This document shows, piece by piece, positions 11 to 63,627 of a stretch of 64,000 nt of DNA; the stretch's first letter is position 1; every line of letters starts with the position of its first letter. The DNA is from a virus. Its lineage: Duplodnaviria; Caudoviricetes. A program made the translations under genes and the position numbers. The notes beneath the pieces are model-generated. The model did no database searches and was not told the origin of the DNA. It saw only the letters and a list, made by a program, of their open reading frames with translations. The stretch spans positions 1,383 through 65,382 of the IMG/VR virus record IMGVR_UViG_3300037455_000099. One strand, 5' to 3'.

Positions 11-787
11 ATGTCTAATGAAACAGAAGCAAGAAACAAGGCAATAAAGACAGCTGGAACTATAGCTTCAGCTGCAGCACTTGCAACACTCGGAGCTGGT
101 GGTATAGCTGCTGCTTCTGGTCTTGCTGCTTCAGCTGCTGCTGGCGGATCTAAACTTGGCAAAACACTTATGGACTTTGACCCTTCAACAATAGGCGATA
201 AGGTTATAAACTTTGCCCAGAACGATCCAAGAGGACAGAAGGCATACGAGTATCTCGATGGTGGTATACGCGCGTATGCAGATGCTCGTTCTTATGTAAT
301 AGGTACATTCGCTGATCAGGCAATGAAACGTCTCGACCAGATGGGCGTTATCGACGAACTTGGTAATACAGCAGGCAAAATCACAGCTACAACCACATCA
401 AATGCTTACAACAACATCGACCCTAGATTGTCTTCATTGATTAATCAGGTTGGCAATAGCTTAGGTGGAGGTATGGCTAGCGGTACTGCTCAGGCTGCTA
501 ACAACATTAGTCCTGTGCTTTCACAGACTTCTGGTGTACTTTCTCAGATCCAGGCACTTCAAAATAATCCTATAACATCTGACATCCTTGTTAACCCACA
601 GACAGTAGCAAGTATGGAAAGTATGTATTCTTCTAGTCCAGCGGTCGTTAATAGTATTCTTAATAGCGTTGCCAATACTGCTAATACATCTAGCGCTCAG
701 GTTGCTAACAATGCAGCTTATGCTTATGGTAATGCTACAAAGAAACCTAAACTAGCTGCTTCTTCTGCGACATACAGGAGGCCGTGA
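11..787 (+). CDS. hypothetical Ala/Ser/Asn-rich protein
   Basis: 258-aa ORF from track; low complexity; no recognisable motif. Confidence 0.7.
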   Translation: MSNETEARNKAIKTAGTIASAAALATLGAGGIAAASGLAASAAAGGSKLGKTLMDFDPSTIGDKVINFAQNDPRGQKAYEYLDGGIRAYADARSYVIGTFADQAMKRLDQMGVIDELGNTAGKITATTTSNAYNNIDPRLSSLINQVGNSLGGGMASGTAQAANNISPVLSQTSGVLSQIQALQNNPITSDILVNPQTVASMESMYSSSPAVVNSILNSVANTANTSSAQVANNAAYAYGNATKKPKLAASSATYRRP

Positions 788-1314
788 TTATGTACAACGA
801 CTACATCGCACACCGAGACCATAAGTATTTAGCAAGAGTTAAAGATGCTGCTAATAGGTATAGATATTTCTACACTCAGGCAGCTTATAACACTTACAAG
901 AATGCTAAAGCTATTGGCGCGGGTCTTATTACAGCTTCTAAACTTTCTTACAATAGAAAGAAGTTAGCATCAACAAGTAGAAGGACTGATGTATTCTCTC
1001 AGTGGGATAAAGCTAGAAGAGAAGAATACGCCAATAATGTAGCAAACGCTGTTGGTCCAGGAGCGGCTCAGACAGCGGTAAACAACTGGAACGACATGAT
1101 TAGTGACTTTGGTAATACACTTTGGAAAAAGAAAGTAGAACTCCTTGCTCAGCCAACAGACAGCACAATGGCGGCATATGAGGGAGGCCGTACAAAAGAA
1201 TCTTATCGTATTCGTCCAAGAGCAAGAAAGAAAAATGTTACTGGTAATGCAAATCCTGGAAGTACAGCAAAGAAACCTTTAGCAACTGTCCAGAAACGAA
1301 GATCTAGAAGATGA
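784..1314 (+). CDS. basic protein with N-terminal DYIAH leader (putative internal virion protein)
   Basis: YNDYIAH-RDHKYL start followed by a K/R-rich body; leader shared with 1663, 2523, 34842 and 60694. Confidence 0.65.
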   Translation: MIMYNDYIAHRDHKYLARVKDAANRYRYFYTQAAYNTYKNAKAIGAGLITASKLSYNRKKLASTSRRTDVFSQWDKARREEYANNVANAVGPGAAQTAVNNWNDMISDFGNTLWKKKVELLAQPTDSTMAAYEGGRTKESYRIRPRARKKNVTGNANPGSTAKKPLATVQKRRSRR

Positions 1315-1324
1315 AAGGAGATTT

Positions 1325-60668: not shown

Positions 60669-60693
60669 CAAACACTAAGGAGGGATTAATGCC

Positions 60694-63627
60694 ATGAATC
60701 AGACTGCAGCTGAACTGGCAGAATTTTACGCAGCCGTAATGGAAGGTATGACTGAAGAAATGTACCATTACGGAGTCAAGAGACGTTCAGGACGTTATCC
60801 ATGGGGTTCTGGTAAAGATCCTTATCAGCATGGAGACAACAGAGACTTCTTAGGAAGAGTCGACGAGCTTAAGAAGAAAGGTTGGACTGAAACTGCTGAG
60901 AACGTCTACAAAGAATTTGGGGTTTCACTTAACGAATACCGATATGAGAAATCCATTTGTGTTAATGAAAGACGACAGGAGAGATATGCAAGAGCATGCT
61001 CACTCAGAGACGATGGACTTAACACATCAGAGATAGCAAGAGCAATGGGATGTAATGAATCTTCTATAAGAACATTATTTGAAAATGCTAATGCTATTAA
61101 AAACATGAATGAGATACATGATACAGCGAAGTTCTTAAAAGAACAGGTAGACAAGAAACGAATGATAGACGTAGGTAAAAACGTTGAGATCGAACTGGGA
61201 ATCAAAAGAGAACGACTCGACACGGCTATCTATTATCTTGTTGGTGAAGGGTATCATGACTATGGTGGACGAGTTCCACAGCCACTCAACCCAGGACAGA
61301 TGACAACTCAGCGTGTATTGGCCGCACCTGATGTCGAGTTCAAAGAGATTTATGACTTTGATAAAGTTAAGACTATAACAGAGTATAAATCTGATGATGG
61401 TGGCAAAACATTTAAAACGTACCAGTATCCTGAGAGCCTTGACTCTAAGCGTCTGTTAGTTAGATACGCAGACGACAGAGATCCTGATGGCTTCAAGGGT
61501 ATTGAGAAGGATGGTATTATCGAAATCAGACCAGGATGCAAAGATCTTAGTCTTGGTGACGATAATTACTGTCAGGTACGTATCCTTGTTGATGGCACAC
61601 ATTATCTAAAGGGAATGGCAGTATACTCTGATAACCTACCTGATGGTATTGATGTAGCATTCAACACAAACAAGACAAGAGACAAATGTCCTACACCAAA
61701 AGACTGTCTTAAAGATGCAGCTAAGAACTTAAAGAAAGATCCTAACAATCCATTTGGTTCTACTATTAAGCCAGCACCAGAAGGACAGTACATGTATGTT
61801 GATGACGATGGCAAAGAGAAGCTTGGACTCATCAACAAGAGAGCATCACAGGGCGACTGGTCTGAATGGAAGGATCAGTTACCAGCACAGTTCTTAGCTA
61901 AACAGACTACAAAGTTAGCAAAGAAACAGTTAGACTTAGCAAGAGCAGACAAGAAGGATGAGTTTGAAGACATTATGTCTATTACTAATCCTGCTGTAAG
62001 AAAGTATTACTTAAATAAGTTTGCTGAATCTTGTGACAAGACTGCTGTTGATCTGAGTGCTGCAGCATTACCACATCAGAAGTACCATGTTATCTTACCT
62101 ATTAATAGTTTAAAAGAGAATGAAGTATTTGCACCACAGTATGAGAACGGAACTAAAGTAGCTCTTGTTCGATACCCACATGAAGGTATATACCAGATTC
62201 CTATTTTAACTGTTAATAATAAGAATGCATTAGCAAGAAAGATTATTGGTACTGATTCATTCGATGCTGTTGGTATCAAGGCGTCCGTAGCAGAACAGCT
62301 GTCAGGTGCAGACTTCGATGGTGATACTGTTATGGTAATACCAACTCATGATGCAGAAGGTAAGGTTAAGATCAGCAATAAGGCTCCACTCGAGGGACTT
62401 GTTGGATTCGATTCTAAACAGTACCAGTATGACAGCATCAATGAGAAGGGTGAATACTGTCGCAATGGAATACCATTCAAGCCAATGTCTAAGGCTACAA
62501 CACAGAAAGAGATGGGTGTAACTGCTAACCTGATCATGGACATGACTATGGCTGGAGCTACTGATGACGAACTCGTTAGAGCAACTAAGCATAGTATGGT
62601 TGTTATCGACGCAGAGAAACACCACCTCGACTACAAGCAGTCAGAGAAGGACAACAACATAGCAGAGCTTAAGAAACTATACCAGGTACAGACCAATGCG
62701 GACGGTACTGTGGTAATAGATCCTAAGACTGGTGGTCCTAAGGTTGGTGGTGCAGCAACCCTCCTATCCCGATCCAAGAGTGACGAGAGGGTACCTAAGA
62801 GGATGGGTCAGCCTAAGGTCAACGAGAAAGGCAAAGATTGGTATGACCCTACCAAGCCAGAAGGCGCACTCATCTACAAGACGGTTCCAGAAGACAAGCT
62901 CTACTACACTAAGTATGAGAAGAAGAAAGATGGAACAGTTAAAGAGACCATCGAGATGAGGACAGATACCATTAGCAAGATGGAGAATACCGAAGATGCT
63001 AGAACACTCATCTCTGCTAAGCGTACTAAAATGGAACTTTTGTATGCTGATTATGCTAATGACATGAAACAGCTTGCTAGAAACGCTAGATTAGAGATGG
63101 TACACACCCCTAATGTAGAGGTTAACAAGGAAGCTAAGAAACAGTATGCTAATGAGGTAGCCTCCCTCAATAACAAGTTAAACGAGGCCCTTAAGAACTC
63201 TATTAAGGAGAGACAGGCGGTACGTATGAGTGCAGCAGCCTTAAAAGAAGCTATTGAAAGAGATCCTTCTTTAAAAGATGATAAAAAGAGTAAAAGAAAG
63301 ATTAGTCAGTTAGCTATAACCCAGGCTAGAGAGGAATTAGGTTCTAAAACAAGAAAAGAACGTAATATCAATCTTACTGACAAAGAATGGGAAGCTATAC
63401 AAGCAGGTGCTGTAAATAACACTTTCTTAAACAAGCTTTTAGCTAACTGTGATCCTGATGACTTACGTGCACGCGCTACACCTAAAGAAACAAAGGAAAT
63501 TAGTGCTGCTACTAAAGCTCATATCAAAGCTCTTGCAAATAGCAATTACACAGTTGCTGACATTGCTGATCGTCTTAACTTGTCAACTTCAACAATTTCA
63601 AAGTACATTAAAACGAAAGAAGCGTGA
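60694..63627 (+). CDS. single-subunit double-psi-beta-barrel RNA polymerase (YonO/RdRP-like) with two HTH motifs
   Basis: LVRYPH and LSGADFDGD (DFDGD at 62311-62325); HTH-like segments near both termini; N-terminal EMYH-YG leader. Confidence 0.85.
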   Translation: MNQTAAELAEFYAAVMEGMTEEMYHYGVKRRSGRYPWGSGKDPYQHGDNRDFLGRVDELKKKGWTETAENVYKEFGVSLNEYRYEKSICVNERRQERYARACSLRDDGLNTSEIARAMGCNESSIRTLFENANAIKNMNEIHDTAKFLKEQVDKKRMIDVGKNVEIELGIKRERLDTAIYYLVGEGYHDYGGRVPQPLNPGQMTTQRVLAAPDVEFKEIYDFDKVKTITEYKSDDGGKTFKTYQYPESLDSKRLLVRYADDRDPDGFKGIEKDGIIEIRPGCKDLSLGDDNYCQVRILVDGTHYLKGMAVYSDNLPDGIDVAFNTNKTRDKCPTPKDCLKDAAKNLKKDPNNPFGSTIKPAPEGQYMYVDDDGKEKLGLINKRASQGDWSEWKDQLPAQFLAKQTTKLAKKQLDLARADKKDEFEDIMSITNPAVRKYYLNKFAESCDKTAVDLSAAALPHQKYHVILPINSLKENEVFAPQYENGTKVALVRYPHEGIYQIPILTVNNKNALARKIIGTDSFDAVGIKASVAEQLSGADFDGDTVMVIPTHDAEGKVKISNKAPLEGLVGFDSKQYQYDSINEKGEYCRNGIPFKPMSKATTQKEMGVTANLIMDMTMAGATDDELVRATKHSMVVIDAEKHHLDYKQSEKDNNIAELKKLYQVQTNADGTVVIDPKTGGPKVGGAATLLSRSKSDERVPKRMGQPKVNEKGKDWYDPTKPEGALIYKTVPEDKLYYTKYEKKKDGTVKETIEMRTDTISKMENTEDARTLISAKRTKMELLYADYANDMKQLARNARLEMVHTPNVEVNKEAKKQYANEVASLNNKLNEALKNSIKERQAVRMSAAALKEAIERDPSLKDDKKSKRKISQLAITQAREELGSKTRKERNINLTDKEWEAIQAGAVNNTFLNKLLANCDPDDLRARATPKETKEISAATKAHIKALANSNYTVADIADRLNLSTSTISKYIKTKEA

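Follow-up and report, generated by a model that had tools for sequence, protein, structure and literature searches.

A recurrent hydrophobic-x-His motif shared by the spacer of a protease–capsid fusion and the N-termini of basic proteins and a candidate RNA polymerase in a gut phage

Why should the spacer of a protease–capsid fusion, a set of small basic proteins and a candidate RNA polymerase, all encoded by one phage genome, carry the same short sequence ending in histidine? We addressed this question in a 65.4-kb gut phage (IMGVR_UViG_3300037455_000099). The window, that is, the whole stretch of DNA analysed, is 64,000 nucleotides (nt) long and corresponds to bases 1383-65382 of the 65,382-bp IMG/VR phage record, which CheckV rates as complete. 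An initial annotation of this DNA had proposed that the fused protease cuts after His at a hydrophobic-x-x-His motif, both in the spacer and behind short acidic leaders that mark proteins for packaging. Here we confirm that a shared His motif is real and find that it reaches further than that annotation had described. The interpretation that we favour, to which we give about an even chance, is a propeptide and cargo system resembling those of T4 and phiKZ but built on a new, His-specific site.

His sites in the spacer of the protease–capsid fusion

The fusion gene encodes three successive segments, the second of which contains the sites in question.

14977..15357, + strand: prohead serine protease domain of the fusion, residues 1-127 (Peptidase_S78, 25.9 bits against a cut-off of 21; phrog_3270, E 1e-201)
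15358..15801, + strand: acidic spacer/scaffold, residues 128-275, with six [I/M]-x-His sites
15367-9 (H131), 15451-3 (H159), 15487-9 (H171), 15679-81 (H235), 15727-9 (H251) and 15796-8 (H274), + strand: codons of the spacer His residues
15802..16743, + strand: HK97-fold major capsid domain, residues 276-588, with the mature N-terminus predicted at S275

Six of the seven His residues in the spacer of this phage are preceded at position −2 by Ile or Met. Five of these sites had been quoted in the initial annotation and are indeed present in the fusion that starts at 14977; to them we add a sixth, EMKH↓NV at H235 (the arrow marks the proposed cut), which is nearly invariant in homologues. Across the whole proteome of 19,661 residues, the pattern [ILMV]-x-H-[ASNG]-[DE] has 11 matches, and six fall inside the fusion protein. 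A match in ORF 19312 (open reading frame, ORF), which adjoins the tape-measure gene, was taken as chance, and the sequence L-N-H↓N-E in the acidic C-terminal tail of the portal protein was rejected as a seventh site, being not conserved and mostly replaced by Gln in relatives.

Using the fusion protein as a query we fetched 80 related loci, and a few more later. The 83 fusion homologues contain 494 spacer His residues, 93% of which have Ile, Leu, Met or Val at −2 (background 20%); position +1 is Ala, Ser, Asn or Gly in ~85% and position +2 is mostly Asp or Glu. No such pattern at −2, +1 and +2 surrounds the His residues of the protease and capsid domains in the same 83 proteins. The unit ending in His is conserved lineage-wide; its hydrophobic residue lies at −2 ([ILMV]-x-H) and not at −3, as had been proposed. 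Among 49 non-redundant fusions, His is invariant at 131, 159, 251 and 274 and is present at 235 in 46, and the spacer sequence between the conserved His residues is highly variable and otherwise unalignable. A further 53 lineage-specific His residues fall outside these five columns, in 28 columns, and they too have Ile, Leu, Met or Val at −2 (77%, background 18.5%) and Ser or Ala at +1. That extra His residues in so many columns keep the rule shows that the whole unit has been gained repeatedly, as expected of a functional short motif.

An AlphaFold model of the fusion, built from the 49-sequence alignment (mean pLDDT 76), contains a confident protease domain (residues 1-127), in which H41, H43, S90 and H105 are invariant in the 49 sequences, and a confident C-terminal domain. 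Between them the model is disordered at 129-192 and 221-246 and helical at 193-221 and 251-275, and the disordered segments contain four of the sites, namely the first three and H235. The C-terminal domain resembles the capsid proteins of a gene transfer agent (GTA), HK97 and actinophages (Z 14-16 over 230-270 residues), and the Pfam Phage_capsid model scores 18.5 bits on the fusion, below its cut-off of 24.2. Mature capsid chains of the actinophages Ziko and Bobi, which start at residue 2, align from model residue 276, and HK97 residue 112 aligns with model residue 283; the HK97 fold thus starts at model residues 276-283. The mature N-terminus of HK97, which we take to be residue 104, would correspond to ~275 in the model. 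Because the HK97-fold alignment puts the mature N-terminus there, H274↓S275 lies where a maturation cut is expected.

Taken as a protease substrate, the unit of Ile, Leu, Met or Val, any residue and His, with a small residue next and an acidic one after that, would have a hydrophobic P3 and a His P1. By analogy, its shape (hydrophobic P3, free P2, fixed P1 and small P1′) is that of other prohead-protease sites, and we consider that the spacer sites are probably cleavage sites. After assembly of the shell, the protease would then free itself at H131, cut the spacer into small acidic peptides and release the mature capsid protein at H274↓S275. The high His content of the spacer (3.4%, compared with 1.1% for the capsid domain) would also be compatible with metal binding or pH sensing within the scaffold, with the likeness to the N-termini of other proteins being coincidental. 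However, what accompanies each His is a constant hydrophobic residue two positions before it and a small one directly after it, there is no second ligand, and the sites lie 12-64 residues apart in disordered sequence, so that we regard such a role as very improbable.

N-terminal tags on basic proteins and the polymerase candidate

Outside the fusion, the His motif is found near the N-terminus of five small basic proteins and of a candidate RNA polymerase (RNAP), in each case between a leader and a conserved block that we call a tag.

1..787 (window ORF 2..787), + strand: C-terminal part of a 388-residue DUF7211 carrier (DUF7211 36.5 bits, residues 10-31; E 8.7e-13 with the tag hidden Markov model (HMM) described below)
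790..1314, + strand: ORF 784, a basic 174-residue protein (start at GTG 784 or ATG 790) with an 8-residue leader ending DYIAH, nt 790-813
1663..2172, + strand: ORF 1663, a basic 169-residue DUF7211 protein (36.8 bits; tag HMM E 4.8e-12); leader and tag at nt 1663-1737, the leader ending at His11
2523..3305, + strand: ORF 2523, a basic 260-residue DUF7211 protein (33.8 bits); leader and tag at nt 2523-2618, the leader ending at His18
34842..35663, + strand: ORF 34842, a basic 273-residue DUF7211 protein downstream of the tail genes (33.2 bits); leader and tag at nt 34842-34928, the leader ending at His18
60694..63627, + strand: YonO/crAss-type single-subunit RNA polymerase candidate of 977 residues with C-terminal HTH domains (phrog_4291, E 0)

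The leaders quoted in the initial annotation are all present: DYIAH↓RD in ORF 784, DYIAH↓HG in ORF 1663, DFIAH↓HG in ORF 2523, DFIQH↓YG in ORF 34842 and EEMYH↓YG in the RNAP at 60694. Its description of an acidic leader followed by a basic body also holds, the leaders having a net charge of −1 to −5, the small bodies an isoelectric point (pI) of 9.6-10.6 (four of them with 21-25% Lys+Arg) and the RNAP body a pI of 8.6. These ORFs had, however, been considered unrelated, and here the annotation was mistaken: ORFs 1663, 2523 and 34842 match DUF7211 at the N-terminus, with conservation extending ~12 residues past the His. DUF7211 (PF23847) is a Pfam family of 25 positions and unknown function, the gathering cut-off of which (27 bits) is passed by four proteins, these three and the carrier at the upstream edge of the window. 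The Pfam model itself includes the x-I-x-H prefix and a G-M-x-W-G core; the tags of the RNAP and ORF 784 lie outside the family. An HMM built only from the tags of relatives and run on all 628 six-frame ORFs of the genome placed the four DUF7211 proteins first (E 1e-12 to 3e-6), the RNAP next and then noise (E 3.8), and gave no match to ORF 784.

The upstream carrier is the largest of the DUF7211 proteins (genome positions 1003-2169); it begins 380 nt upstream of the window, so that its leader and tag fall outside. Its residues ~140-190 form a long hydrophobic stretch rich in Ala, Gly and Ser, membrane-spanning in appearance, followed by a tail rich in Gln, Asn and Ser, features that would suit an ejection or channel protein. 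ESM Atlas searches with two of the small-protein bodies returned only unnamed or DUF7211 clusters, and the bodies have no recognisable function.

Comparison across the relatives distinguishes three tag types. Type A, or DUF7211, has the consensus H-[HY]-G-x-x-G-[MQ]-x-W-G, often followed by RRYQN-x-DGSLT (in ORF 2523 the extension is RRYQN-x-DGSLT-x-AG). A narrow pattern for this type identified 124 copies in 51 loci; the median distance of the His from the start is 11 residues, and Ile, Leu, Met or Val stands at −2 in 99%. Type B is the polymerase tag, H-Y-G-x-x-R-x-S-G-R-Y-P-W-G-S-G, preceded by L-x in relatives and by M-x in this phage, where a 25-residue acidic leader ending EEMYH is followed by YG-x-x-R-x-SGRYPWGSG (leader and tag together nt 60694-60813); L-x-H-Y-G is kept in gut relatives, 1706, Mudcat, Scap1 and OhMyWard, and a type B-like long-loop form also starts small proteins in one locus. 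Type C, the tag of ORF 784, reads HKY-x-A-[KR]-[VI]-K ... YFY and is kept in its family with [IL]-x-H in front. ORF 784 has no Pfam or PHROG match, and a direct scan with it returned one near-identical fragment only; the homologues that share the prefix came from an alignment query. Because [I/L/M]-x-His precedes different conserved blocks, it is a recurring module and not merely part of DUF7211. The initial annotation had placed the packaging address in the acidic leader, a view that is not supported: leaders upstream of P5 are not conserved, and strong conservation follows the His, in H-[HY]-G-x-x-G-M-x-W-G and in the two other tags, so that the address is more likely to be the retained tag.

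Some relatives carry the tags in other arrangements. Two DUF7211 tags occur within a single ORF in 1706 orf7 (L002:2501-3889) and Mudcat gp7 (L085:2820-3827), the second near residue 190 with L-x-H before it; such genes resemble small polyproteins, and the internal L-x-H would fit polyprotein cutting. An actinophage gene between the portal and fusion genes (Mudcat gp11, L085:7442-8053; ReqiPoco6 gp025, L004:23341-23991) encodes an N-terminal [LI]-x-H with Y..DP.KA.EYY behind it. This may be a fourth type of tag, and it is absent from the gene in the portal–fusion gap of the window (14611-14961).

The RNAP candidate contains a DFDGD motif at residues 540-544 (nt 62311-62325). It scores 19 bits with Pfam RdRP, below the cut-off of 23.8, and sequence searches of the PDB gave no match for it or for the fusion protein. 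Homologues are present in ~250 phage records, including those of Arthrobacter, Gordonia and Streptomyces phages, Lactococcus phage 1706 and Faecalibacterium phages. A promoter-like element of ~35 bp, approximately TTCGCG-N-TA-N-ATTC-N5-CTTTAATGGAAGATA, was found in nine intergenic gaps of the non-structural half of the genome and in none of the structural half.

36812, 37154, 37820, 49168, 49984, 53692, 58373, 58517 and 59065 (window), + strand: promoter-like element

The promoter-like pattern was counted 29 times against 12 expected, a number reached by 0 of 100 shuffles. As the element has a −10-like TATAAT/TTTAAT and lacks a TTGACA-like −35, either the phage polymerase or host sigma-A acting with a phage factor could read it.

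Cleavage, docking and packaging

In the interpretation that we favour, the P3-P1 unit of the spacer would also open the three N-terminal tags, DUF7211 on four basic proteins, the related long-loop version on the RNAP and the third on ORF 784. Docking inside the procapsid would be the most likely role of the tags; a cut after the His would then remove the short acidic leader, and basic bodies and polymerase alike would stay with the DNA and be delivered to the host. We consider it reasonably likely that the tagged proteins and the polymerase are virion components.

The prohead protease of T4, gp21, cuts after L/I-x-E. As in T4, where the diverse internal proteins have a capsid targeting sequence as their only shared feature (PMC3012670), the putative cargo here is diverse and fast-evolving and shares only a short N-terminal signal; scaffold and cargo N-termini would likewise carry one short protease motif, hydrophobic at P3 and constant at P1, and the cargo is basic and, by analogy, may travel with the DNA. 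Unlike in T4, where P1 is Glu, the putative site here has His at P1. Conservation falls mainly downstream of the proposed cut, which would leave the tag on the mature protein, and the protease, a member of the HK97 family, forms one polypeptide with the capsid protein; moreover, the phages are siphoviruses of Gram-positive bacteria. A second likeness is to phiKZ and SPN3US. The SPN3US protease gp245 cuts after A-x-E with a preference for Ser at P1′ and removes N-terminal propeptides, which in these phages span 20-250 residues on head proteins and, when long, are cut at several sites, and an RNA polymerase is packaged in the head, where it counts among the SPN3US head proteins (PMC10052503). 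That polymerase is multi-subunit and its subunits are not listed among the nine cleaved proteins (PMC10052503), whereas here a single-subunit YonO-like candidate itself bears the site and the tag; the two systems also differ in motif, protease family and genome size (65 kb here).

Two observations connect the spacer with the tagged proteins of this lineage. First, in a sister phage whose fusion is 78% identical, the spacer contains DYIAH↓SD, and the same five residues head ORF 784, ORF 1663 and the upstream carrier in the phage studied here. Second, P3 in this genome is Ile or Met, never Leu, at the six spacer sites, in the five small-protein leaders and in the polymerase, while in non-redundant relatives Ile occupies no more than 6-10% of the corresponding spacer positions and is found in ~6% of leaders; the Ile/Leu usage of the whole genome is unremarkable (0.48; median 0.465). 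As a link between spacer and cargo this all-Ile/Met state is suggestive only, and a general covariation of Ile and Leu between spacer and leaders across genomes was considered and failed. Annotation of Lactococcus phage 1706 bears on packaging: its GenBank record labels as 'structural protein' both orf7, which has two DUF7211 copies each after L-x-H, and orf75, a homologue of the RNAP (36% identity) with a type B tag. The Rhodococcus phage record holds no proteomic detail of its own, and a literature search found no mass spectrometry of Arthrobacter phages.

Could spacer and tags nevertheless be two unrelated things, the spacer His residues being protease sites and the tags being N-terminal domains of non-virion proteins (DNA-binding or host-takeover factors), with the RNAP made in the cell and left unpackaged? 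The common core amounts to three positions, the RNAP gene stands at the end of the replication block, after the exonuclease, and the lack of any recognisable function in the bodies would fit as well. Yet one prefix is common to three different downstream tags, tagged genes are placed among terminase, portal and head genes throughout the lineage, the 1706 record calls both a tagged protein and the RNAP homologue structural, and an identical five-residue string occurs in the spacer of the sister phage and the leaders of this one. We judge such a separation to be quite unlikely.

A different objection concerns cutting itself. [ILM]-x-His might be a binding motif, with the tags held in a procapsid pocket (such as the cleft of the protease or the inner face of the capsid) that the spacer motifs also use, the leader staying intact and only the spacer, or nothing, being cleaved. 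Docking of this kind would account for a conserved cargo block that extends well past the His, for the difference at P1′ between cargo and spacer, and for internal tags such as the second copies in 1706 orf7 and Mudcat gp7. It accounts less well for the last spacer His lying exactly at the HK97-fold boundary, given that the fused protease must come off somewhere, and for a P3/P1/P1′ pattern that is that of known prohead proteases; the internal tags, too, are preceded by L-x-H and are compatible with polyprotein cutting. Docking without cutting is, in our estimation, unlikely.

Several points weigh against the propeptide and cargo system that we favour. The conserved tag is located mostly downstream of the proposed cut, and P1′ is Ala, Ser, Asn or Gly at the spacer sites and Tyr, His or Arg in the cargo; because of these two features, spacer and cargo sites need not share one enzyme. 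The N-termini of the RNAP and ORF 784 do not match Pfam DUF7211 even at E up to 10, and the RNAP match to the tag HMM is marginal (E 0.025) and covers the first 11 positions only. Because other genomes mix Ile and Leu, the all-Ile/Met state is a single lineage event and not general covariation. The 'structural protein' labels of 1706 are annotations of its GenBank record, both cleavage and packaging in this phage are what we infer, and a prohead protease that has His at P1 is not known to us.

A wider proposal, possible but in our view doubtful, is that a whole siphovirus lineage spanning actinobacterial and Firmicutes hosts loads a changeable set of basic proteins and a YonO-like RNAP into its heads by means of a His-specific HK97-family protease and tags, and that the injected RNAP transcribes early genes from the nine-copy promoter-like element. 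If true, ordinary 55-65-kb siphoviruses would follow an N4/crAss-like infection strategy. The propeptide and cargo system itself, if correct, would provide the first prohead protease rule with His at P1, make mature capsid and cargo N-termini predictable in hundreds of sequenced phages (~250 of them cultured) and offer a portable tag for loading foreign proteins into siphovirus heads. It would also give grounds for supposing that a large, easily cultured phage group brings its own RNA polymerase, which would change the view of early expression and host range.

Lineage and genome layout

The phage is a member of the Lactococcus 1706/Faecalibacterium Oengus/actinophage lineage. The same gene set and order have been described for the 1706/Oengus/actinophage supercluster, together with the protease–capsid fusion and a YonO/crAss-like polymerase candidate with a DxDGD loop (bioRxiv 10.1101/842583; PMC5513430). 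Passages of the two papers retrieved by term search are silent on the His sites and the tags, and on whether the polymerase is processed or packaged; in these passages, the Arthrobacter phage paper notes the fusion and reports no processing (PMC5513430). Our literature searches gave no relevant mention of DUF7211 or of the core motif.

Essentially all large ORFs of the window are on the + strand. The whole record starts with a small ORF, an HNH-like ORF and a series of small basic-protein genes, which lead to the large terminase; an inserted block (tail-like protein, CBM protein and CHAP endolysin) then precedes the portal and the protease–capsid fusion, and the remainder comprises the tail genes, the non-structural half, the exonuclease and, at the end, the 977-residue polymerase candidate.

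2169..2513, + strand: untagged virion structural protein between the cargo genes, a homologue of 1706 orf6 (phrog_4247, E 8.8e-29)
3333..5069, + strand: large terminase, with tagged genes directly upstream (TerL_nuclease, E 2.6e-31)
13383..14633, + strand: portal protein (Phage_portal, E 3.4e-15)

Also among the cargo genes is a 108-residue ORF (window 1325-1651) whose match is limited to the C-terminal SH3-like part of phage amidases (phrog_1794, E 8e-6), without the catalytic domain. In the terminase–portal interval (window 5076-13179), where relatives have tagged cargo genes, the genes of this phage are untagged.

5386-6063: CBM_5_12 protein, untagged
6093-7937: tail-protein homologue (phrog_5302), untagged
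12448-13179: CHAP + PG_binding_1 endolysin, untagged

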